A stretch of 63,169 nucleotides of DNA, filler included, from Thraustochytrium aureum (Eukaryota), in NCBI GenBank assembly GCA_012862495.1. It is 9 parts of 4 records of this genome, joined end to end, with 100 filler letters (N's around TTAATTAATTAA, not from the genome) between each part and the next. Parts side by side here need not be neighbours in the genome. Positions count along the whole stretch, not along the records: positions 27,865 to 34,570 come from BLSG01000062.1; 8 more parts are not named here. One strand, 5' to 3'. The notes under the pieces were generated by a model. That model was not told where the DNA came from, searched no databases, and saw nothing but the letters and a program-made list of their open reading frames with translations. The position numbers and the translations under genes were made by a program. The first letter of the stretch is position 1; every line of letters begins with the position of its first letter. Shown here piece by piece: positions 284 to 36,915 of this stretch.

Positions 284-2095
284 CTAGTCGGCATAAATGT
301 CGTCGAGGTCGTCGAGGTCGTCCTCGCCCTCCTCGGCGTCCTCGCCTCCCCTCCTCGGCGCAGCTGCGGTGCTCGACGAACCAGACGCCGCCGCAGACCC
401 GCTCGAAGTGGCAGCAGGAGCAGCGCTCGCTGAGGTCCCTGCGGCTGGGGCAGCCCCGAACCCGCCCATCCCGGGCATCGCGCCGGGCATCGCGCCGGGC
501 ATCGCGCCGGGCATCGCGCCGGGCATCATGCCGGGCATCATGCCGGACAAGCCTCCCAAGGCCGAGCGCATGGAAGGGTCCGACATCATCTCCATCATGC
601 TCTGCATCAACGACGGGTTGGACAGCATTGTCGTCATCGGATCCTGGCCAGAGGACATGGCCTGCATCATGGTGGACATGAGCTGGGGATCCTGCATGAG
701 GCGCTGCGACATGCCCTGCGCAGCGTTTCGAAGCTGCGGGTTGTTCTGGAAAGCCTGCAGCATTGCCGGGTCGACCCCGGGCATACCTGGGAAACCGCCC
801 GCAGGCATCCCGCCGCCAGGCAGCTGGCCGAACATGGAGCCAAAATTGTTGGACGGGTCGGTGAACGCGGCGAAAGGGTTGCCTGCCCCCGCTGGGGCGC
901 CGCCGAACGCGGACGGCGCGATGGCCTCGGCTACCGGGGCGGCAGACGGGACGCCGTGCGGGGCCAGCTTTTCAGCAAAGCGGGCTAGTTCGTCCCGGAG
1001 ACGAGTCATCTCGTTGGCGTTGCAGGCCGAGTTGAGCACGAGGTAGGCCTCGCCGTCGCGGTCTTTGTGCTCAAACCCGATTGCGAGCATGCACTCTGTC
1101 CCGCCCGAGCACGACGCTACCTTGGAGGAGAACTTTGCGTTGCCAACGCGGATGGATCGGTACTTGACGTCCTCAGGGTGCGTGACAATGTTGCGCACAT
1201 ACAGCTGGATGACCTGCACCGCGTCGCGGGCTTGCTGGCGCGTGTTGCGCGCCTCAAGGTCGCCCAGCGCGCGGCGCAGCTTTAGCTCTGCCGCCGAGGC
1301 TGCGCCAGCACTTCCAGACGGCGCCGCGGCTGGCTGGGCAGCTGGCTTGGCAGACCCCATAGAAACCGCAACGTGGACAGTGAGATCGGTCTCGGCGATT
1401 CCGCACGAGGCCAAAGAGGAGCCGTCCTTCAGGATCTTGCCATGGAAAATGAGGCGCACTGACGCCAACGAAGCGTCAAGCTCTACCGCAACTTTGCGAC
1501 GCAGGTGCTGTACCGAGGCCTTGCTGTTGATCTTGACTGGGCGCGTCTCGCCAGTGATCCGCTTGAGCTTTATGGTGAGCTCGTCTCCGCCTGTAGGCTC
1601 TGGGTCCGCAGCCTCGGCGGCCTGGATAGCCGCGCGGAAACTGGCCGCCTCGGCCTCAGCCGCTGCAGCAGCACCGCCCTTTGCATCCTTGTCCTCCTGT
1701 GCAGCTTCGCTCGAGCTCATCGAGAGCTTGATTGCGGCCGCGAGCTGCTCGTCCTCAGCCCGCACCAAGAGTCGCGTGATCGTAGACTCTAGCTTTTGCG
1801 GGCTCGCCCCCGAAAACCGCTCAATCTCCTGCCCGTTTAGGTGAAACGTAAACGTCGGGAAGGCGCGGATGCCGTACTTGGCCGGCAGGTTGGCCATCTT
1901 GTTGCTGGGCTCCTCCGTGTTTACCGACAGGAACGTGCCATTCGTGTAGAGGCGCGCCAGGCGCTCGTACTCTGGCGCGATCCGCACGCACGGCCCGCAC
2001 CACGGGGCCGACCAGTCCACCACAACGAGCCTATTCTCTGCGCGCAGCTGTTGGTTCAGCTGCGCTTCACCGAGCACATGGATCACGCCCGACAT
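284..2095 (-). CDS. Thioredoxin + UIM + ubiquitin-like + PUB + STI1-like multidomain protein
   Basis: Likely start MSGVIHV at ATG 2095. Motifs in order: Trx active site WCGPC; UIM EDEQLAAAIKLSM; UBL LTIKLKRITG...RLIFHGKILKDGSSLASCGI; PUB YVRNIVTHPEDVKYRSIRVGNAKF...MLAIGF; Met/Gln-rich NPQL/DPQL/NPSL STI1-like segment; GAMP repeats; acidic tail ending DDIYAD. Confidence 0.85.
   Translation of the reverse strand: MSGVIHVLGEAQLNQQLRAENRLVVVDWSAPWCGPCVRIAPEYERLARLYTNGTFLSVNTEEPSNKMANLPAKYGIRAFPTFTFHLNGQEIERFSGASPQKLESTITRLLVRAEDEQLAAAIKLSMSSSEAAQEDKDAKGGAAAAAEAEAASFRAAIQAAEAADPEPTGGDELTIKLKRITGETRPVKINSKASVQHLRRKVAVELDASLASVRLIFHGKILKDGSSLASCGIAETDLTVHVAVSMGSAKPAAQPAAAPSGSAGAASAAELKLRRALGDLEARNTRQQARDAVQVIQLYVRNIVTHPEDVKYRSIRVGNAKFSSKVASCSGGTECMLAIGFEHKDRDGEAYLVLNSACNANEMTRLRDELARFAEKLAPHGVPSAAPVAEAIAPSAFGGAPAGAGNPFAAFTDPSNNFGSMFGQLPGGGMPAGGFPGMPGVDPAMLQAFQNNPQLRNAAQGMSQRLMQDPQLMSTMMQAMSSGQDPMTTMLSNPSLMQSMMEMMSDPSMRSALGGLSGMMPGMMPGAMPGAMPGAMPGAMPGMGGFGAAPAAGTSASAAPAATSSGSAAASGSSSTAAAPRRGGEDAEEGEDDLDDLDDIYAD
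465..546 (-). repeat. Coding 12-bp tandem repeat (GMMP/GAMP, about 7 copies)
   Basis: ccgggcatcgcg repeated on the + strand. Confidence 0.8.
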
Positions 2096-3839
2096 GCTCT
2101 CCGCGCTCAGTACCTCAAGCCGCGCCCTCCCTTCCACCACCGCAGCGCCCTTGTCACCGTGCCAGCGACACTGACACCTGGCAGGCCTCGGCGTAGGCAC
2201 CTGTACGTGGAGAAATCCGACCCAAGTCGCGCGCCGCGCAACAAAAACGCACGAGCAACGCCAGCGCGTAGAGCGCGGAGGGGCCTCTGTTGCCTCTCAG
2301 CGCAGCTCTGTGAGCGCTCCCGGTCCTCTGCTGCTCTTCGTGCGCCGCCCTGATGGAGGTCTGGGCGACTCCATCCCGCGCAGCGCCCGACGCGTTCACA
2401 GCAACACGGGCACAGTTACGTGATTCCTCCCGTCGTTACGTGGGACGGCGTTGCATGTGGTTTCTTTGCGCGCGTCGACGAGCGATTCTGTGGATTAGTG
2501 ACGTGAAGTGGTGCTACGTGACGTGTGATCGGAACGCGATTCTGCGGGCCGAGGTGGCAAGAAGGGTATCTGCGGCCGCACGGCTGCTGACGATGGGCTT
2601 GATGGGTTTGGTGGAAGGCCTTTTCAATGCTTTTGCCTGCACAAGAGCTTCCGACAACAGCGTCGAGCCGGGCGACAGCAATGCGCGAGCGCGCGGAGCC
2701 CGAGGGAGCACCATGACTGCGCACATGACTGCGCAGTACTGTACTCGCTCGAGCGAGTTGAGCCCAGGAAACGGCGCGAAGCTGCTGCCGTTCTCCTCAG
2801 GTGCAAGATCGAGTGTCCGGCTTCACCATCACGAGGCTGCTTGGGGCAAATCTTTCGATCTGCGGGCGGTTCGTCAGCAGGCGTGTCAACATCGGAAGGC
2901 CCTCCACCCATCATCCGTCAGGCTCTTCGCCATCCCCAGCCTTCTGGTTGCCAGTTGGTTCCACTGGACCGGCCGTGGGGCTCCTCAGAACGCGGCCTCC
3001 GACGCGCAACAAGCAACACGGCGACCGCGGCCGGTCCGACCTGCAGCGATTCCCGCGCAGTTTCGAACGAAACGGCAAAATGCTGCACGGCGCGAAGGCC
3101 CGCGAAAGGCTTGGGCAAACGCAGCAGTCCCTTCCGTTGGCAGCGAGAGCGGCAAGTGGCCAAGTCACGGTGAGGTCCAACGGCTCCATCTCTTCTTTGC
3201 TGCCTGTCTCGTGGCGCCAGTCCATCCGTGCCACATAGAGTTTCGGAGAGCGCCCGCGATGATGAGCAAATGAAGCGGAGGCAAAAGCAACAAGGCGTTG
3301 GCCGGTTTGACCTGCCTCGTTGTGATCCAAAAGGCATTTACAGTTGTATGCAGCCTACAGTTTCAAACGAAACGGCTCAGTGGCAAGCAAACCCAAGGCA
3401 GCTCCTTGCAAGTCCAGTTTGGGGTCGAAGGGGTCAGAGCTGTCCGCCGCTATTCGCTTTGTCGCCAGGTCAAATTCCTTCGGTCCGTGCATGCCACGTA
3501 CAGAAAGAGAATGCAGAGTGAGTACTCCACTCATCAGCACAGCCAAGTGGAAGGAAGTGGCACCTGCACCTTGACAGCTAAAATTACATTTTCGGGTGCG
3601 CTCTCGCTCTACAATCAGCGAGAACAGAGGCGTTGGTGGCAAGCAACAGGCGCCCGAGCAACGTCAAGGTCCCGCTGCCGCAGGCCTGAGCCCCTGAGCA
3701 AGCAGACTCGCAACGACACCAAGCAGCGGCCAGAACCCAAGTGCAAGCAACACAACGGCAACCCGGCATCCAAGGAGCTACCCCAAGCACATCGTCGGCA
3801 TCAAGCATCGCAAGAACAACTAGCCCACGCGTGAAAACC

Positions 3840-11824: not shown

Positions 11825-14800
11825 CTAGCTGTGGCTGGGCGTGTCTGCGGCCTCGTCGAGGCCCTCGAAGAGCGAGTCGATGCTGGCAGGGATCGGCTCG
11901 TTGGNNNNNNNNNNNNNNNNNNNNNNNNNNNNNNNNNNNNNNNNNNNNNNNNNNNNNNNNNNNNNNNNNNNNNNNNNNNNNNNNNNNNNNNNNNNNNNNN
12001 NNNNNNNNNNNNNNNNNNNNNNNNNNNNNNNNNNNNNNNNNNNNNNNNNNNNNNNNNNNNNNNNNNNNNNNNNNNNNNNNNNNNNNNNNNNNNNNNNNNN
12101 NNNNNNNNNCTCGTTGGCTATCTGAAACATGGCGGTGCGCTGGTAGCGGCGCAGAATGACGTGCAGCGAGGTGCGGTACAGCGCGTCGCTGTGCGTCTTG
12201 CGGAGGTGCTGGATGGCCTCCCGAAGGTCGCGGATCGAGTAGCCGGTGACGGCCAAGATGCGCGCCTTCACAATGGGGACCTCCTGGTACACGAGCGCCA
12301 GCACGAGGCAAGCCGCCGCGACGAGCGACGGCATCTTGCAGATGAACAAGTGCTCTTGCAACGACAGCTCGGCCAGATAGTGCGCGAGGACCCGCGCCTT
12401 GTCGCTGACCGGCATCCTCGGACATGGCTCAGTCCCGTCAGGCAGCACCGAGCAGAGCTCGTCCTCGCTCTGGTCGTAGCTCAGGCGCACCACGAAGACG
12501 TTGAGAAAGTCGATCACAGTAGGGACGCAGATGTGAAAGTCGAGCTTGTTGAGCACTTCCTCCTCAAGCCGCAGCAAGTCCTCGGGCTTGTAAACCCTGT
12601 CCGCACAGACGACAAGGTCTTCGACCCCGATGTACGACACGTCCTCGCACTTTGAGGCGATGTGAAGGCAGGTCGCCCCGAGCAGCTGGAAGCGGCGGCG
12701 CTCCACCCTCTCAAGTGCCAGGTATCGGTCCGTGTAGTTGACGGCCATGAAGACCGACCGAACCGACATCTCAAACACGTCGATCACCTCAACGAGCCAG
12801 TCCACGAGCATGGAACGGTGCATCGGAAGCAGGTCGGGCTGGAAAGCGGGAGTCGCGCCCGCCCCGCGAGGAGGCCGGCTGCTCTCGCTTGTGGATGTCA
12901 ACAGCGACCTGAGGGAGTCCATCGCGCCTGGCGCAGTTGGTCTTGGAGGCGGCCCCGGCAGAGCCGTCGCTGACGCCCCTGCTTGAAGGCTGTGCGAGAC
13001 GGTCGTGGTCGTGGTCACGATTGGCGCGGATGTGTCGCGCCAATCAGTGGCCCCTGCACTTGACCCCTCGACCATGTAGTCTTGCAAAGGGTACATGCTG
13101 TCCTCGAGGCACTTGAGGTAGTGGTAGTACCGCACCAAGTACGCCGGGTCGTCGAGCCCCGGCCGGCTCCGCTCGTTCATGTTGGCAATCTCGTGCAGCC
13201 GCGTCGAGTACTTCCAGCACGACGCAGAAGCGCCCGGCCCGGTCGGGTCAAGCCAGCTCACCGTGTCGAGGTTGAGCCTTCCGGCGACGTGCCCCGCCTC
13301 CGGAAAGTCGCGGTCCGGCAGCTGCGCGTCCGCGCGGATCGGCCCAAACTCGAGCAAATTGGCCTCCGCGTCTCTGGCGCGGTGGGCGTCCACGCCAGGC
13401 GGCACTGCGACCATGGCCAGGTTGGGCGAAAACTCGGCTTTCACGGCTGGCCACGGTCCGCGCGACTCGCCCGGGCAAGGTTGCGGAGGACTTGCTAGCG
13501 ACGGCCCGGGCGACGAGGCCGCCCTGACGGCATCAAAGTACGGGTGCTTGAGCGCCGCCTCTGCGGTTATGCGGCGGTCCGGGTTGATGTTGAGCATCTT
13601 GGCCATCAGGTCCAAGCCCTGCTTGTCCAAGGTGGGCACGTGCACGCGCAGCGGGCGGCGCGACCAGTTAGGAAAGTCAAAGTGATAGTTCGGGAGCTGC
13701 TTGAACTGGCTCCACGTCTCCTCGTCGGGGGTTCCCAGCTTGAGGAAGATCTGGAAGAGCTGGTCGATCTCGCAAATGCCAGGAAACAGGGGCTTGCCGA
13801 GGATCATCTCCGCGAACACGCAGCCGACGGACCAAACGTCGACGGCGGCAAAGTATTGCCCTCCCATCAAAACCTCCGGCGAGCGGTACCAGAGCGTAAC
13901 CACCTCGGTGGTGTAGTTTCTCAAAGGGATCGAAGTGGACCGCACTAGGGCAAAGTCAGAGATGCGGATGCTCCCGTGCTCGGCGCAGGCCAAGAGCTTT
14001 TCGTATACGTCTGCGCTCACAGGACCGCCGGCGTCCGGGTCGGGGGAGGCTGCAGCGACGTCCACGACAGCAACGGCCTCGGCGCCGGCAACCGCCGCCG
14101 CGCTCGCGCCGTGGCGAGGCTGAGCGGCTCGCGCCCGGCTCGCGCGCGTCTCTCGAGATTCTGAGCCCTCGACATGCGTCGCAGAAGGCTGCCCAGCGGC
14201 CGGACGCGCGGGCGCGCCGGCTGCGGTTTCGTCCCGGTGACCGATGCCGCGCACCACGGGGGGCTCGGCAGGCTCGGGGGTTGCGACTGCGCGCGAGGCA
14301 ACGTTGCTCACGGCACGACGCAGCCGCGGTGCCACGGGCACAGGGCGGCCATCGCCGTCAACGCTGACGTCCATTCCGAGAAGTGCAGGGAGCTTGGCGC
14401 GCTCTTCCCGAGCCTCGACGCAGCGATGCGGCGAGTGCACGAACGCCGGCATGTCGATGAGGAGGTGCTTGGGCTTGAGGTTGCGGTGCAGCACGCCGCG
14501 TTGGTGGCAGAACGCGACGCCCTGAAGGATCTGGAACAGAAAGCGTTTGATGAGGGACGGCGGGAGCGGTAGGCCGCCGTTGGCGTCGTTGTTTGGGTTG
14601 ATGAGGTCGAAGAGCGACTTGTCCATGTACTTGAAGAAAAGGTAGAGCTTGTTCTCGTGGAGCGAGATGCGCTCGACAGTGGCGATGTTGGGGTGCCGCA
14701 AGCCCTGCAAGAACGCGAGCTCGCGGAGCATGTAGTAGGGCACGCCCTCGCCTTTGGGATAGACGCGCGCCTTCTTCATGGCGAACAGCCGCCCGGAGCG

Positions 14801-15552
14801 GCGGTGGAACACCTTGTAGCACATGCCCTCGGTGCCTTGGTTTTTCAAGCCCAGCGACTTGAATGCAAACCGGTTGATGTCTCCATTGCGGTAAAACGTG
14901 GGCACCTTGTCCCACAACTCGCGCGACTTGCACATGCGGTGCCAGGCGCGGTTCACCGCCCACGGCCCCTGCATAAAGTCTTCGCTATTGATCAAGAAAG
15001 AGAAGATCAACATCTTGCACTCGTCCAGCAGCATCGAAAAGTGCGTCACGCTCCGTGTGACCTCGTCGTCACTCAGCCGGAACCGGCAGGGCATCGGCGC
15101 GAGCGGCTTGCCGCCGTCCTCGCACAGCTTGCGTTTCGTACCGAGCGGGCTCGAGAAGCTCGCTGCGACCACGCGCGCGGGTTTGGGCGGGCCTACTTGA
15201 AGCGGGAGGTTTGTGGGAGAGGCGGAACCGTCAGTGGCCNNNNNNNNNNNNNNNNNNNNNNNNNNNNNNNNNNNNNNNNNNNNNNNNNNNNNNNNNNNNN
15301 NNNNNNNNNNNNNNNNNNNNNNNNNNNNNNNNNNNNNNNNNNNNNNNNNNNNNNNNNNNNNNNNNNNNNNNNNNNNNNNNCAGTGGCCTTGGCCTCTCCG
15401 CCGTCGCTGCGCTCGCGCCCGCCGTCGCCAAACAGCCCGCCGGACCATCGCCCACTCGGCCCAGCGCGGCCGCCCTCGGCGGACCCGACAGAGTGCGTCT
15501 CGTCGTGGTCTACGAGGATGGCGCTGTCGCCGGCCGTTGCCGCGGTTTCCAT
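11825..15552 (-). CDS. F-box + CDK-like pseudokinase + cyclin fusion protein (two N gaps near the ends)
   Basis: One ungapped frame from 15239 to 12110 holds an F-box (FSMLLDECKMLIFSFL...AVNRAWHRMCKSRELW), a CDK domain (FAMKK, EGVPYYMLRE, HRNLKPKH, DFALVR, YTTEVVTLWYRSPEVL, GKPLFPGICEIDQLFQIF, RITAEAALKHPYF) and a cyclin box (HRSMLVDWLVEV, AVNYTDRYL, FQLLGATCLHIASKCED, LAHYLAELSL, PSLVAAACL). Start METAAT at 15552 is inferred across a gap. Confidence 0.9.
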
Positions 15553-27864: not shown

Positions 27865-28850
27865 CTCGAGGGACACACGTATAGTGTCAGTGCCGTGGCT
27901 CTCTCGCCCGACGGCTACCGCATTGTTTCGGGGAGCTACGACAAGACCGTCCGCATCTGGGACGCGAAATCGGGCAGCGAGATCCGGCGGCTCGAGGGGC
28001 ACACCTCTTGGGTCTACGCCGTGTCCCTCTCGGTTGACGGCGACCGCATAGTTTCGGGGAGCAACGACATGACCGTCCGTACGTGGGACGCGAGATCGGG
28101 GCAGGAGATTCGGCGGCTTGAGGGGCACACCTACAGGGTTAAGGCCGTGACCCTCTCGCGCGATGGCGACCGCATCGTTTCCGGGGGCAAGACAAAACCA
28201 TCCGTATCTGGGACGCGAGGACAGGGCAGGAGCTCCGGCGGCTCGAGGGGCACACGAACAGTGTCATGGTCGTGGCCCTGTCGCGCGACGGGGGCCGCAT
28301 TGTTTCTGGGAGCGACGATATGACCGTCCGTATCTGGGACGCCCAGTCGGGCGAGGAGCTCCGGCGGTTTAAGGGACACACTTCTGGTGTCAAGGCTGTG
28401 GCATTCTCGCGCGACGGCGGCCGCATTGTTTCTGGGAGCGACGATAAGACCGTCCGCGTCTGGGACGCGAAATCGGGACTTCAGCTCCGGCAACTCAAGG
28501 GACACACCTCCAGTGTCGATGCCGTGGCCTTCTCGCGTGACGACGACCGCATCGTTTCGCGGAACGGCACGGGCCGCGTGCTTGTGTGGTCAGTTGCGAC
28601 GGGCAGCGTAGTAGAGGACGCAGATGCAGCGGCAGTTCTGGCTCAAGAAGAGCTACAGATGCCGGCGCTGAAGCACGGCGGAGCTACGGTATCCGTGGTA
28701 AGCGGGCCTGGAGCAACTCTCTCGGCAGGCTTCACGTGCGACTCTGCTATCGATCGAAGCGTGGCAGCACCGGACGGGTCGTTCGTGGCTCTTTTCGACG
28801 GTTCGCATCAGCTGTGCGTGCTGAATCTGATTCAGCGGAAAGTGCAATGA
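27865..28850 (+). CDS. C-terminal part of a WD40 protein with highly similar 42-aa (126-bp) repeats, HET-E/NWD-like; 5' end missing; frameshift near 28189
   Basis: About six units of GHTxxVxAVxxSxDGxRIVSGSxDxTVRIWDAxSGxExRRLE, the last degenerate. Confidence 0.9.
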
Positions 28851-30427
28851 AAAGGCATACGCAAGGCGGGTAAGTTTGGGGTCGCTTTTGCGCTGTCAGC
28901 AGGAGTGAGCCCGACCTCCCAAAAATGAAATTCAAGGCTGGGTCTTACAAAACGTGTCTCGTGTCCGCATTGCAAGGCTGTCCTTCGTCATGTTTTGCGG
29001 CATCGGGTTTTGCAGATCAAGACTCGCCTTTGTCTTTGGGATTGAATGATGAACTCCATGTTATTGGGACAATTGGGATATCAACAGGCTAGCAGCAATC
29101 GAGTAGAGCGCGATCACCGCCTCGGCAAGTCCAACCGGATAACTGCAAACGAGCAAGGCGCGGCCACTCTCCGCGCTGCACCATTTCGATGCAGCTAAGC
29201 CGGGCCGCGGCAACTTCATCACTCCCCCGCTCCAAGGCACAGCGCAAGAGCCAGTTCACTCGCCGCGCTGACCGAGCCGGGACAACGGACCCTGGCATGT
29301 AGAGCCTATCTCATTGCACCACCCGAACAGACATGGTCCGCCTGCGACTCAACCGCTGCCGAGTAAACCGACAGCGCATCCGATCAAAGGTTTCCATCCG
29401 CGCTCAACCAAATAGGCGCCAAGCAGACGCCCCATGTTAAGCATTGACATCGATGGCGATCGAATGGGAAAATCTCGCAATGGCAAGCAATCCCCCAACC
29501 GAGTTGGTGGACCAAAGCGAGAACCGAAAGGCAAGCAAAAGGCAAACAACCCGACCCGAATACATACTCGATTAGGCAACAAAAGAAAAGCACGTTAAAC
29601 CTGTGAACCAATCTCGCATCTCCGCGGAGTAACATCTCCGCCGNNNNNNNNNNNNNNNNNNNNNNNNNNNNNNNNNNNNNNNNNNNNNNNNNNNNNNNNN
29701 NNNNNNNNNNNNNNNNNNNNNNNNNNNNNNNNNNNNNNNNNNNNNNNNNNNNNNNNNNNNNNNNNNNNNNNNNNNNNNNNNNNNNNNNNNNNNNNNNNNN
29801 NNNNNNNNNNNNNNNNNNNNNNNNNNNNNNNNNNNNNNNNNNNNNNNNNNNNNNNNNNNNNNNNNNNNNNNNNNNNNNNNNNNNNNNNNNNNNNNNNNNN
29901 NNNNNNNNNNNNNNNNNNNNNNNNNNNNNNNNNNNNNNNNNNNNNNNNNNNNNNNNNNNNNNNNNNNNNNNNGGAAACCTACCTTTGATTCGCATTTGGC
30001 GTCTGGCCCTCATGAAGCCGGTCTGGGTCCTCTCCAGCAAGCCGCCTTTGTGGCGCAGCGAGACATCCCTGTTGGTGTTGCCTGACCTGCGCATTGGTTT
30101 GGCTGTGCCGTTTTTCACTTTTCTTTTTTAGTTAGACGCTGATAGGTTGGACCCTTGACAAAACTTCCGCCCTCCTCACTCATTCGCTCGTCACATTCAG
30201 GCTGTTTTGCGTCACTAAAACTGATGGCTCGTGTCCAAGTTGCGCTTCTTGGGGATGGAGTCTCGTTCAGTTGCGTTACTTTAATTCTGCACTTCTGCAT
30301 GCCCGCCGCCTTCAGCGGGGGGGGTCGCCAATTGTTTTTGGGGAACGAGTCACAACGGACCCGCGGGCTGGGGTCCACATCGACAGCCAGTTAGCCTACT
30401 TTTTCTCCCGGTCCGAGTCATTTCTCT

Positions 30428-33189
30428 CTATTTTTGGGTTGTCCGTGCACGAGAAGTAGCTGGGTACAATGCGAGCAAACCCTCGCGGTCGGCCTCTTCG
30501 TCATACGGGAAAATACGGGCGAGAATCGCAGCCGCGACTTGTGCCAGGCAGCGCTTGAGCACCGGGTCTTCGTCAAGCTGCTTGACGAGTTCCTCGACAG
30601 ACTTCCTTTCGCCGTCGGCACTCTCCAAGTCGGCCTTGATAAGGGGATACCAAAGATTGTTCGCCACACCCATCATCCCCATCCACTCATCTTTGTCTGT
30701 CATCTCGTCGACCAGCACGAGGGGCAGTAGGTCCCCCACCAACTTGAACTGTTCAGCATAATAATACTCCAGTCTGCAGACGCTGTTTTGGTCCTCATCT
30801 CGCACCTTGTCGGCGTAGTCGGTGGTGAGGCACACGCAAAAGGTCTGGGACTGATCTATGCCGCTCGTCAACGATTGCTTCGCGTTGTCTCGAACCTCAC
30901 ATTCGTCAACCCAACACTTGATGCCGTAGTCCGAGTCAAGCTTTTGCGCAATTGCCAGAACCCAGTTGTGCGTGCGTTTCTCTTTGCCCCAACTGTGCGA
31001 CATGAACGCGTCGAACCTAGTGCGCAGCCGTGTCGAGAGCCGGAGCACTTCGTCACAGAACAATTTTGTTGCGCGGCTGTCCGCGAGCTCGCTCATGTCC
31101 CGCTGCAGCATCATTTCCATATTGGTCTTTGCCTTGTCTGTCTGGTGCAGCGGCAACGAATCAAACGCGAGGTTGTTGCTGCCCAGGCGCAGGAGAATAA
31201 GTTTAACTTGCTCGCTGGCGACTTCCAGAACTTCGTTGGGGGCTTTGTCCTTGGCCTTGAGCTGCTGCTCGATTTGTCTGCGGATAAACTTCTGGACGGC
31301 GTACGGTTCGCGTTTAAGCAGTCGCTTGTTCACGTCGGCTGCACGAACTGTAGCTCGCATCGAAAACTGAGGGACCAACTCCACGATGCTTGCCTTTCGA
31401 GTGATGAGTCGAGGAAGGCCTTTTGCCGTGTCGTACACGTCGGCCTCCTGCTCTCGGCAAGCGCCAAGTGCCTGGAGGTCGCTCAAGAACGCTCCTCTAC
31501 TCCCCTCGTTANNNNNNNNNNNNNNNNNNNNNNNNNNNNNNNNNNNNNNNNNNNNNNNNNNNNNNNNNNNNNNNNNNNNNNNNNNNNNNNNNNNNNNNNN
31601 NNNNNNNNNNNNNNNNNNNNNNNNNNNNNNNNNNNNNNNNNNNNNNNNNNNNNNNNNNNNNNNNNNNNNNNNNNNNNNNNNNNNNNNNNNNNNNNNNNNN
31701 NNNNNNNNNNNNNNNNNNNNNNNNNNNNNNNNNNNNNNNNNNNNNNNNNNNNNNNNNNNNNNNNNNNNNNNNNNNNNNNNNNNNNNNNNNNNNNNNNNNN
31801 NNNNNNNNNNNNNNNNNNNNNNNNNNNNNNNNNNNNNNNNNNNNNNNNNNNNNNNNNNNNNNNNNNNNNNNNNNNNNNNNNNNNNNNNNNNNNNNNNNNN
31901 NNNNNNNNNNNNNNNNNNNNNNNNNNNNNNNNNNNNNNNNNNNNNNNNNNNNNNNNNNNNNNNNNNNNNNNNNNNNNNNNNNNNNNNNNNNNNNNNNNNN
32001 NNNNNNNNNNNNNNNNNNNNNNNNNNNNNNNNNNNNNNNNNNNNNNNNNNNNNNNNNNNNNNNNNNNNNNNNNNNNNNNNNNNNNNNNNNNNNNNNNNNN
32101 NNNNNNNNNNNNNNNNNNNNNNNNNNNNNNNNNNNNNNNNNNNNNNNNNNNNNNNNNNNNNNNNNNNNNNNNNNNNNNNNNNNNNNNNNNNNNNNNNNNN
32201 NNNNNNNNNNNNNNNNNNNNCAGCGCATGCGTCATGTAGTACTCCTCCGAGCCGCTAAAGTCCCACAACGAGATCACGCCGCCCTCCGAGCTGCCCTTGA
32301 CGTCAAACTCGATGCTGTGGATGTCCACGCTAATGGTCGCCCGCGAGTCGTCGCTCGCTGGCGTCGGGTCGGCCTGGAGCCCTTTCGCCTTCAGGGCGCG
32401 CGTCAAGCTCGTCTTGCCAACGCCCGCGGGGCCCACAACAAGCACCTTGACCTGGAGCACCGTATCGGGGCTGAAGAGGATGCCCTCCAAGAAAGCAAAG
32501 GTGTTCTTTGCAGAGGTCGAGGTATCTCTCTCGAGGACTTCTCGTGGAGCTAGCGGCACGGGGAGCCCGCAGTCGATGGCGAGCTTGGCGAAACGCCGGG
32601 TCGCCACTGCGCGCGCGTCATTCCTGTCGATGCTAGGGCCTTCGACATTACACTCGACGCGGACAAGTGCCGCTAGAGCGACTTCTCCTTGGATACCGAT
32701 GCTGCTGCCCTCAAGGCTGTTGTGGTTGTGATTGTTCGATCATGATGAAGGTGGTCACGCGAGTTGGTCAGCCACAACCCAAAAAATGCACAACTACGCG
32801 GCCGCGCAAGCAGGCACTGCCCTCTTTGCAAACAAGGATGAGGCAGGCATGAGCTCACGGCCATCCGTGCCACGACTTACTTCAGAGAAGTCACTGTCGA
32901 GTTGCTCTTGAGCGCCTTGGCCAGCGCGCCAGCACCTACATCGCCGATTTCGTTGCCACCGAGACTGTTGTTGTTGTTGTTGTTGTTGTGGTTCGATGAT
33001 GAAGGTGGTCGCGCGAGTCTGTCAGCCACCACCGAGAGACACTGACCGCGCAAGCCGGCTCTGTCTGAATTCATGCAAGCACGAGGCTGGTGCGAGCGCA
33101 CCAAGCAGCCAGCCAGAAACTCACTCGATCGACGACTCTCCGCGCTTCACCGCGGCCACTGCCTCCTCTGTGTTCATGCATTTAACCAT
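30428..33189 (-). CDS. ROCO protein: RI-type LRR + Roc GTPase + COR region (mostly in a gap) + C-terminal TIR; exons 33189-33125, 32964-32881, 32716-30428
   Basis: Spliced N-terminus MVKCMNTEEAVAAVKRGESSIDLGGNEIGDVGAGALAKALKSNSTVTSLNLEGSSIG; Roc KVLVVGPAGVGKTSL and LWDFSGSEEYYMTH; TIR FDAFMSHSWG...CWVDE...GIDQSQTFCVCLTTDY...CRLEYYYA...LLPLVL. COR is assumed from family architecture. Confidence 0.85.
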
Positions 33190-33559
33190 CTTGCCTATTT
33201 GCCTGTGGAGCTCACAAACCTCCTGCGGTGGATACGCAACCTTCTAGCAAGACACCTCGCCTCTAGTGCGCGAAACTCGTGCCCTGGTTCGCCTCCCTTC
33301 GACGCCGTTGACGCCCGCCCGCCCGCTGCGCAGTGCCCTGTACTGTACCCTCTTGCGCCTGCTCTGCCTCGTCAACCGACTCTCGCAGCACGTTGAGTGA
33401 CTGCAAAGCTCTCGTTCATGCCATGCACACATGGACGTGAAGTTATGCTTCGGGGCTAGACTGAACCCTGCACAACTGTGACTGTTTTCAACTAAACCCA
33501 TTTTGGACTCCTCCAGATTCCTCTGCCAACACGCTTGTCAGCGGCGCAGAGTGTCCTCA

Positions 33560-33800
33560 CATCAAGTCAGGAGCGTGCACACTTTGATTTCTAGTTGTCG
33601 CGCCAGCCGCTTTTCGATTCGCCGAGTGAGTTTTGCAAGTTTTTGCTCCCTGTTCTTGGAATTGAGCACGGTAGGCCTGCGTCTGTTGCTGGCTGCAAAC
33701 CTCAGGCTTTGGCTGTTAGGCGCAATGGATGCACATGCATGTGTAGGATTCATGTGTCTTAGGCAAATGGATGAAGTGAGTCCATGGTGGCTGCAGCAGC
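33560..33800 (-). pseudogene. Possible decayed BED zinc finger (hAT-like transposase remnant)
   Basis: Minus-strand translation PPWTHFIHLPKTHESYTCMCIHCA* matches the W-x-H-F...CxxC pattern but is broken by stops and frameshifts. Confidence 0.3.
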
Positions 33801-33913
33801 CGAACTCCTGGACTCAACGCTCTCGCTCTCTAGCTCTAGAGAGAGAGTGTCTACAGAGAGCTCTACAGGTAGAGCTCGACTCAGGGCTAGCTAGAGCCAG
33901 TCGCGATTTCCCC

Positions 33914-34570
33914 TGACGCCAGCCCTCCTGCGGGGGTTTGGCCAGAGCCCGGATAGCAAGCTAGCTCAAGTAGAGTGGAGCGGGAGGAGGCCCGACCAGA
34001 AACTCGAAAGAGGGGCAATTGATAATCCATGTGGTTGGTGGTGTTACTCTACGTAGCGCTAATGAAAAAAAACACTTAGGCCTACCGGTACTGGCACACA
34101 ATCCTGATTCACAGTGCGTCCATTCACATGTCCTCGCTGAATATTGAATACCAAGGACAACCAAGAGCCAGAGAATCCAACGGGTACTCGGAGTCAAGAA
34201 ACTTTCGAGTAGCCTCCTCAAGGGATCCTCGAGGTCCTGGTCGGCGAGTCGGGAGTCGAGGATCCTTTGTAAGAACAAGGAAACGTACCTGAACTGAGTG
34301 AACTCTGTGGAATTAAGTGAGGGACACCACTTGGACACCACAACTCCTTTCCTTACTCCTGATCATCTGAAGGACGATTTTGAAGGTCGGGCGCGACTTG
34401 TACGCGCGGCAGTTCACGTCGTCGTGCAGGCCGTACACTAACGTCGAATTTCAACGGTCCTACCCAGGAATGTCTCAATCCGGGCGACTATCACTGACGG
34501 CAGTCCACTTCCTTGCCCAAACCAATGCATCATACGGCGCCTCTGTCGAACCTGGTACTCAGCCACCTCA
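33914..34570 (-). mobile_element. Putative 3' end of an LTR retrotransposon: ORF end, polypurine tract (34344-34360), candidate LTR of about 429 bp (34342-33914)
   Basis: Minus strand reads AGGAGTAAGGAAAGGAG-T-TGTGGTG... followed by a lower-GC noncoding block ending ...GGCGTCA; lies at a contig end. Confidence 0.4.
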
Positions 34571-34834: not shown

Positions 34835-36580
34835 TCAGAGCGGCGAGAAGCCCTGCACGAGCGAGTTGACCATAGGCGTAATGAGCAAGTCGGCCACGAA
34901 GAAGAAGAACACCCCGAAGAAAATGGAGATGGGCAGCGCCGGCAGCGCCTTGTGGTACACGGCGAGGAGGAAGAGGGTCGAAGCAAGACCAGCCACGACC
35001 ACGACGTAGACGGCGAAAAAGGTTGACAGGCCGTTGAGCGCGGCGCGGCCGACGAGCACCGAGTAGAAAACAAAGTCGCCGAGGCCGAGCTTGATCGAGT
35101 CGCGGTCGCCAAACGAAGGGCCTTGAGCGAACTCGGCCACCGCCCCCGGCGGGCTCGGCATGATGGCGCCGGCATGCGTTCCGCGCTCGTGCTCGGCCCT
35201 GTAGCCGGTCTCGAGCTCGTCGACGCTGTCGTCGTCAGAGGCGTTCGACGGCGCAAACGGGCGCGAAGACGGGGGCGCCGCCATGAACACAAACATTCCG
35301 AGTGGCCCCGCCATGGCGGCCCCACCAGAGTAGTTGCCGCTGCGGCGCGCCGATTCGCGAGACGAGCTGTCCGAGGCGGCGGAAACCGAGCCGTTTGAGC
35401 CCATTTGTTGCTCGTTCTGGTCCTGGCGGTAGCCATTGTGGTGGTGGTTGGTGATGTTGGCCTCGTACAAGAGGCCAGGCATGCCCACATCCTTGTCCTG
35501 TGAAATCTCAATCAGACACTTGAGCGGCCCCACGGGGGTGAGCACGGCGCAAAGGTCGTACAGGGCCAGCATGATGAGCAGCGCCCAGCTCGTCCAGGCG
35601 GGGAGAAACGCGACGAGCAGCCAGGCCATGACCACGCTGACTCCGACGAGGTAGGCTTGGTTGACGATGACGGGCATGCCTTTTTGGTAAAAGATGGCAA
35701 TGAGCCCGCATATCGCGTAGTTCCAGAAAAAGAAGTAGAAACTGACGGCGTCGAAGGGGACGTTGTAGACTTTGAGGCCCTCTGAGACCATGNNNNNNNN
35801 NNNNNNNNNNNNNNNNNNNNNNNNNNNNNNNNNNNNNNNNNNNNNNNNNNNNNNNNNNNNNNNNNNNNNNNNNNNNNNNNNNNNNNNNNNNNNNNNNNNN
35901 NNNNNNNNNNCGGTAACGAGCCACGTGATGAGCACGCGGATCATGTTGAGGTAAACTGTGCGACGCAAGGGGTGTCAGAAGCGGGGCCCAAGCAAAAGCA
36001 ACAGTAGGTCGAGCGGGCAGCAGCAGCAGCAGCAGCAGCAAAACAACGAGCAAGCGGCCCAGTCAAGCAGGGGTGCAAGCAGGGAAAACGTACAGAGCCC
36101 GACCATCACAAATGTTGCGCCAGTGATGATGCCCACGATGAGGAGCGCGTTGGCCACCGCATAGCCGGCCTTGCTCACGTCCGAGGTAGCGGTGTTTTCG
36201 TCAAAGATCTGCGGCAACGAGGCGATGCCGCCCTGGCCGTTCCCGTTCGAGCCTGTGTTGATGTACACAACCGCGAGCGCGGCAAGGATGACCGTCACGG
36301 ATACGGGCCAGAACACGGCCAAGAACGAGTTGAACGAGTACAGGAGCTCCTTGAACGTCTCGTCCTTCTCGTTCGCCAGGTAGGCCTCGTACTGCTTGCG
36401 TTCCGCCTCGGTCATCGGACGTTGCTGGGGTGGCCCGGCGGGCAGCGGAGGGCCCGGCGGCGGCGCCCATGCTGCGCTTGCGCCCTGGCCGTCAGAGTCC
36501 GAAGAAACGGACGCTTGGCGCTCCTCCTCCTGCAGCTGGCGCTCCAGTTCGAGTTCTATGTCCTCGGCAGAGGTAGCCAT
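34835..36580 (-). CDS. PSEN: Presenilin (gamma-secretase catalytic subunit); intron 35956-36093
   Basis: YD in ALYDLCAVLTPVGPL, IKLGLGDFVFYS and ALPALPISI; intron with GTACGT donor, CTGAC branch and CAG acceptor. Confidence 0.95.
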
Positions 36581-36915
36581 GCCCTCGCCCCCTTCCCCCT
36601 CGTCGACGGCCTTGGTTGCGCTCCCATCGCGGGCCTTGCGCGTCAACACCAGCCCCCGCTGCATCTTGCCGCGTCCCGTGCGCGTTCAACACTCGTCGTT
36701 CCACGAGCTCGAGCGCCCTCGTCGGCGTTGCCAGGCCGCAAGGAGCGGCGGTCGATTCCGCGCCGCTCGCTCGCTCGGTCCTGCGGCGCTTTCTTTCGCC
36801 GGCGCCGCCGCACAGCTGCTCGAACGCCGCCCGCTCGCGTCGCGCCGCCCCAGTCGCTCGATGACTGACGGCTGGCAGCCCTCGAGGCGGCAAGCACGCC
36901 AGCAAGCAGGCCGCG

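Follow-up and report, generated by a model that had tools for sequence, protein, structure and literature searches.

A spliced gene of the type LRR-Roc-(COR)-TIR is predicted on the minus strand of the window, the 63,169-nucleotide stretch of DNA analysed here, and the two homologous introns around its one complete LRR exon are, we conclude with moderate confidence, leftovers of a slow germ-line gain and loss of modules and not signs of active shuffling. The preliminary description had interpreted the same exon as a candidate cassette for exon shuffling. Of that interpretation, the symmetric exon and the common ancestry of the introns were retained, the introns moreover being more alike than the adjacent LRR-coding segments; an active cassette and a collapsed array found no support.

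The window is composed of contigs strung together by N44-TTAATTAATTAA-N44 spacers, with further N gaps within contigs, and the features of the Roco-TIR gene and its surroundings are listed in Table 1. Adjacent contigs encode presenilin, Timeless, a kinase-cyclin protein, ATP10 and other ordinary eukaryotic proteins, and since the neighbouring genes are mostly long open frames, the source is a GC-rich, intron-poor eukaryote. A single open frame of 1043 residues at 12110-15238 (-) carries a protein kinase domain together with cyclin N and C domains, and a single frame of 670 residues at 287-2296 (-) encodes a thioredoxin-ubiquitin-PUB domain protein. Tail-to-tail with the Roco-TIR gene lies a WD40 array (27865-28850, +), truncated by the contig start and made of 5.6 intronless units of 126 nt with 78% matches, one unit being 125 nt long and thus shifting the frame within the array. 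The residues following 'GHT' in this array differ from blade to blade, a variation which recalls fungal HET-E-type repeats.

Table 1 Coordinates of the predicted Roco-TIR gene and of neighbouring features in the window
Feature	Position	Strand	Description
Exon 1 (predicted first coding)	33125..33189	-	65 nt; ATG 33189; ends in phase 2
Intron 1	32965..33124	-	160 nt; GTGAGT...CAG; phase 2; (CAA)n tract before acceptor
Exon 2	32881..32964	-	84 nt; phase 2-2; CAG before, GTAAGT after; one RI-type LRR
Intron 2	32717..32880	-	164 nt; GTAAGT...CAG; phase 2; CA-rich acceptor region
Exon 3, start	32633..32716	-	Degenerate LRR, same register as exon 2
Linker and N-terminal half of Roc GTPase	32221..32632	-	P-loop intact
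709-N gap	31512..32220	.	Expected place of remaining Roc and COR
3' part: helical region and TIR_2 domain	30428..31511	-	360-residue frame; stop at 30428
Contig with Roco-TIR gene	27865-34570		
Presenilin gene	34835-36664	-	Next contig; a single clear intron of ordinary type (138 nt, 36093-35956)

The 84-nt exon and the two introns flanking it were found where the preliminary description had placed them, with the lengths, CAG and GTAAGT borders, phases, repeat type and motifs that it had given. The spliced frame from ATG 33189 to the Roc P-loop is free of stops, and the repeat encoded by exon 2 matches Pfam LRR_6 at E=0.006, which is below the curated cut-off, and is identical to the LRR of the relative P0001 at 18 of 28 residues. 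The Roc frame holds no Met between the last upstream stop and the P-loop and an upstream splice is therefore required; this missing Met is the best sequence-based support for the predicted intron 2. Intron 1 appears a little less certain, because ATG 33074, located within it, is in frame with exon 2 and offers an alternative start. The three-exon model is nevertheless favoured by the donor of intron 1, by its homology to intron 2 and by the start context GCAAGATG at ATG 33189, which also precedes the presenilin ATG 36664. From the sequence, we infer that both exon 2 junctions are used in splicing. Intron retention is not taken as productive, since reading on from exon 1 or from exon 2 meets a stop at once. 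With exon 2 symmetric and both introns in phase 2, placed behind the second base of a codon, skipping or duplication of the exon would keep the frame, as had been proposed. Just 5' of ATG 33189, a CACAG at 33207-33202 (-) is a possible acceptor that would turn exon 1 into a 78-nt phase 2-2 exon; neither a branch-like motif nor an upstream exon was seen for it.

Sequence shared by the two introns had been claimed, and comparison of the two bore this out. Introns 1 and 2 match at 104 of 153 aligned sites (68%, about 32% differing), a figure to be read for two introns only and against a baseline of 47% identity that gapped alignment gives for shuffles. Their local alignment score of 74 compares with 16.7±2.4 in shuffled sequences, none of 1000 shuffles scoring as high, and blastn within the window detected the pair at E=4.5e-12. 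Alignment with MAFFT also gave 104 matching columns, where 60 shuffles had a mean of 56 and a maximum of 79, and the intron motif forms a 62-nt two-copy repeat at 79%. The likeness is unevenly distributed: the 5' ends agree at 10/22, the middle at 41/58 and an ungapped core around CTGAC in the 3' part at 35/40, for which shuffles reached 25 at most. The 5' halves are weakly alike at marginal significance (score 28, equalled in 2 of 1000 shuffles; the best 25-mer reached 18, with the 99th percentile at 17). As judged by these alignments, the solid signal of likeness is one 40-nt core, and introns 1 and 2 are homologous, sharing a common ancestry.

The branch-like CTGAC lies about 58 nt from the 3' end in intron 1 and about 52 nt in intron 2. 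The CAA-rich acceptor regions previously noted in both introns are also present and set them apart from the three other candidate introns of the window, in which a branch-like motif lies 15-20 nt from the acceptor, the ends are pyrimidine-richer and As are far fewer. RNA structure was considered as a reason for the conserved core and rejected: neither intron folds better than shuffles (z = -0.11 and +0.83) and an Rfam search of the introns gave no match, a consensus fold of two sequences only being uninformative.

Exon 2 and the start of exon 3 agree at 35 of 84 nt and share 9 identical residues in register, a match of 35 being reached in 9 of 10000 shuffles. Third positions are alike in 7 of 28 cases, and only two of the nine shared residues have identical codons. 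As aligned, the introns are thus more alike than the LRR-coding segments of exons 2 and 3, although the Fisher p-values for this contrast (3e-5 and 0.009) are overstated because of the 47% baseline of gapped alignments. One local duplication should lead to about equal divergence of introns and synonymous sites. Since the two are unequally diverged here, a single simple local duplication is a poor explanation, and the likeness of the introns calls for past turnover of modules, for gene conversion or for selection acting on the intron core.

The locus contains one complete LRR module plus one degenerate LRR. Within the 63-kb window, blastn found no further intron copy, and tblastn combined with a six-frame motif scan found no LRR exon that was spare, inverted or inactivated. 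Metagenome and viral contig collections, which need not hold the window organism, were also scanned. The intron-core pattern had 0 matches in viral contigs and one in metagenome contigs (L001), which was dismissed as chance, its flanks looking bacterial and having nothing in common with the introns beyond the motif. An acceptor-plus-LRR pattern matched viral contigs four times, in no case at an LRR exon. A locus search of public contigs based on P0003 found nothing, and a protein-based locus search returned 5 distant Roco loci in viral contigs and 519 distant prokaryotic loci, of which 80 were kept (22-36% identity). The intron was absent from all 90 loci beyond the motif in L001. The cassette reading of exon 2 is therefore sustained as far as the symmetry of the exon and the relatedness of the introns go, and weakened by the single complete module and the absence of any further exon or intron copy in 63 kb. 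The symmetry of an exon does not by itself argue for shuffling, because modular LRR-kinase genes, as described by the brown-algal authors, show no sign of it (PMC3341825). It had further been suggested that the assembly collapsed a longer array; nothing points directly to one, given that the introns differ at about 32% of sites and the LRR region is without an N gap.

Beyond the LRR end, the Roc half of the gene matches Pfam Roc at E=5.3e-08 (33.5 bits, exceeding the 27-bit cut-off) and the Roc domain of LRRK2 at E=1.5e-05, and is 52% identical to P0003. The TIR half matches Pfam TIR_2 at E=1.8e-10 and shows weak matches to AbTir. A predicted model of its last 200 residues has a pLDDT of 80.8, with TIR/SEFIR at the top of its fold matches, none of which is at E<=0.001. 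The Glu (E88) of the C-x-x-E motif, a putative catalytic glutamate of the TIR domain, is invariant in 9 aligned rows and lies inside a predicted helix; enzymatic TIR domains combine the TIR fold with a glutamate in helix alpha-C. A Pfam search of the assembled parts of the gene found no NACHT domain. These parts, in the order LRR-Roc-(assembly gap)-TIR, amount to about 570 codons without a stop or frameshift.

The COR region of the gene would lie in the 709-N gap; relatives matching both flanks carry COR-A and have 428-474 residues at this position, that is, about 1.3-1.4 kb compared with the 709 N given. The gap is shorter than expected and, at its given length, the frames of its flanks do not join, so it is possible that the two halves do not belong to one intact gene. 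Another gap of the window (11905-12109), with long open frames on either side, is out of frame as well, and gap lengths hence look like scaffold estimates. At 32264-32244 (-), the Roc G3 motif is WDFSGSE; WDF[GA]GQE stands there in 7 of 7 close relatives, and 128 of the 130 proteins showing the motif (138 fetched) have Gln after it. This change may mean decay or altered GTPase activity.

The relatives P0001-P0003 are 39-52% identical to both halves of the window gene and have the same domain order and C-terminal tail. Together with P0007-P0011 they form a family of uncharacterised Roc-COR-TIR proteins with LRR traces at the N-terminus, which differs from the window gene in keeping WDF[GA]GQE; the exon structure of these relatives is itself deduced, their borders being taken from gene-caller proteins and not from DNA. 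The search with the TIR half gave 2 matches among 6554 candidates and that with the Roc half 1 among 2649; a profile search scored 35 of 7994 as matches, 8 of them close (E<=8e-82), and a further protein search yielded 99 representatives, 6 at E<=1e-10. Trees put the window gene within the family, though not with strong support (81/86 for its grouping with P0003 in the Roc part). The NCBI entries of P0001, P0002, P0007 and P0008 carry the label Durusdinium trenchii, and these four proteins presumably come from the SCF082 assembly of that species. Thraustochytrid 18S rDNA and a thraustochytrid-type virus are reported for this assembly in a preprint (10.64898/2026.07.28.741200). Judged by these nearest named relatives alone, the host of the window gene is probably a thraustochytrid-like stramenopile.

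P0001 and P0007 each have one 28-residue LRR that is preceded by Ser and ends in LK, and reading through the acceptor and donor of exon 2 in the window likewise gives Ser before the LRR and LK at its end. In P0009 and P0010, too, a Ser precedes the first LRR-type Leu, which makes 4 of the 4 proteins examined, picked by eye; P0002, P0003, P0008 and P0011 were left out for having no such LRR start. This agreement hints that phase-2 LRR exon borders are a trait of the family. In P0001, a 9-residue LRR tail occurs three times (residues 28-53), perhaps because the gene model jumps across several near-identical LRR exons. P0011 carries a long LRR region ahead of Roc-COR-TIR, so that LRR content varies within the family. 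Overall, four paralogues in a single other assembly share 73-88% identity with P0001, yet the P0001 and P0007 LRRs agree at 13/27 only.

The explanation we favour is that the LRR region of this family was built from intron-plus-exon modules. A module would have been duplicated in tandem, with subsequent unequal crossing-over or gene conversion between the look-alike introns, and such gain and removal of modules would have left two related introns around one surviving 84-nt LRR exon. The 3' intron core with its branch-like motif may also be under selection; turnover or conversion and selection on this core cannot be separated from two introns alone. After the model of other Roco proteins, the LRR region would be a small binding or autoinhibitory part and Roc-COR a GTP-dependent dimer switch, with the TIR domain as output, possibly NAD-cleaving since the C-x-x-E glutamate is kept.

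A rival reading is an active cassette system, in which LRR exons from a genomic pool sharing the intron core are exchanged among Roco-TIR and other genes, or left out by alternative splicing, the assembly showing one unit of a longer array. Exon 2 is suitably symmetric, the introns resemble each other more closely than the LRRs do, the P0001 and P0007 LRRs have diverged in otherwise similar paralogues, the threefold tail of P0001 could reflect hopping over near-identical exons, and the assembly is fragmented. We nonetheless consider such a system unlikely, as the complete module stands alone in 63 kb, whereas spare LRR exons lie on the opposite strand at 19 Ectocarpus ROCO loci (PMC3341825), the continuous LRR region and the diverged introns do not speak for a collapsed array, and the pattern scans produced a single chance match, of bacterial look, among metagenome contigs and none of relevance among viral contigs, collections that need not include the window organism. 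More far-reaching, and less credible still, is the proposal that a thraustochytrid-like protist maintains a genome-wide pool of 84-nt LRR exons, with the conserved intron core serving as a recombination or conversion handle for re-arming Roc-COR-TIR cell-death receptors.

The rise in likeness from the 5' ends of the introns to the CTGAC core could alternatively stem from one ancient intron-plus-exon duplication that gave rise to exon 2, the 3' likeness of the introns persisting only through constraint on a distant branch point and an unusual CA-rich acceptor, with no later turnover or conversion. The introns do lack the pyrimidine-richer ends and the 15-20 nt branch distance of the three other candidates, and the LRR remnant opening exon 3 is in register with exon 2. 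This account is rather doubtful, however, because the conserved core reaches about 25 nt past any known branch consensus, the middle of the introns still matches at 41/58 while exon synonymous sites look saturated, and no conserved RNA structure or Rfam match accounts for the constraint. It is very improbable that the gene is a decaying or mis-scaffolded copy, whether as a reduced pseudogene or as halves of two paralogues brought together across the gap, in which the exon no longer matters. The single full LRR, the changed G3 motif, the short and out-of-frame gap and the adjoining WD40 array with its frame-shifting 125-nt unit agree with decay, but the assembled codons are uninterrupted, the splice sites, P-loop and TIR glutamate are intact, and the second out-of-frame gap suggests that gap lengths are estimates.

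The predicted exon is probably a remnant of the layout of one LRR per exon, which was described before in brown algae and in immune receptors of humans, and adds a small example of it on the Roco-TIR gene of a unicellular, intron-poor protist. A cassette pool, if true, would be a second, independent stramenopile counterpart of brown-algal shuffling, one that uses another class of repeat and has an enzymatic output. Should the full genome hold many modules with a common intron core, it would provide a culturable unicellular system for the question of recombination versus splicing as the driver of LRR exon shuffling, which is left open for brown algae in PMC11378527. In the open-access literature searched, no 84-nt LRR exon in protists was described, nor a combination of ROCO, TIR or exon shuffling in thraustochytrids as found here (for background on the topic, see PMC5536018, PMC4053784 and 10.1101/027151).

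Roc-COR followed by a TIR domain is also found in the TPR-ROCO-TIR of Chondrus crispus, mentioned in PMC11378527, and in known prokaryotic LRR-Roc-COR-TIR proteins, for example P0027 and P0029. These TIR-bearing Rocos are unlike the window gene in that their Roc-COR is only 22-36% identical and their N-terminal repeats are different, and the prokaryotic genes are intronless.

The parallel drawn in the preliminary description to the 84-nt exons of vertebrate NOD genes was upheld. Most human NOD/NLRC genes are described as having one 28-aa LRR per exon, and alternative splicing is shown for NLRs (PMC6642158). The window gene resembles them in its 28-residue RI-type LRR, encoded by one frame-preserving predicted exon whose border falls within the beta-strand motif; it is unlike them in that its LRR is joined to Roc-(COR)-TIR and not to NACHT, and in its short, visibly homologous introns. 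The parallel to brown-algal shuffling was valid in part, the exons there being 72 nt and of another LRR class. With the brown-algal LRR-ROCO genes as described in PMC3341825 and PMC11378527, the window gene has in common the order LRR-Roc (COR being expected in the gap), one LRR per exon, symmetric phase-2 exons and, probably, a stramenopile host. The brown-algal exons, however, are 72-nt, phase-2 and type I (PMC11378527), in contrast to the 84-nt RI-type exon here; their arrays have about ten repeats against one complete repeat, and the window gene has a C-terminal TIR domain and no spare or inverted exons in the window. Splice variants are reported for brown-algal ROCOs (PMC11378527), and in Ectocarpus the system is marked by long runs of 72-nt exons, by recombination that can be traced and by positive selection (PMC3341825). 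Recombination between paralogues and positive selection on the concave face characterise the brown-algal class. On the features tested, the window gene is outside the brown-algal shuffling class; our verdict, by analogy, is that it would work like the modular LRR genes of the NOD type and of brown algae.
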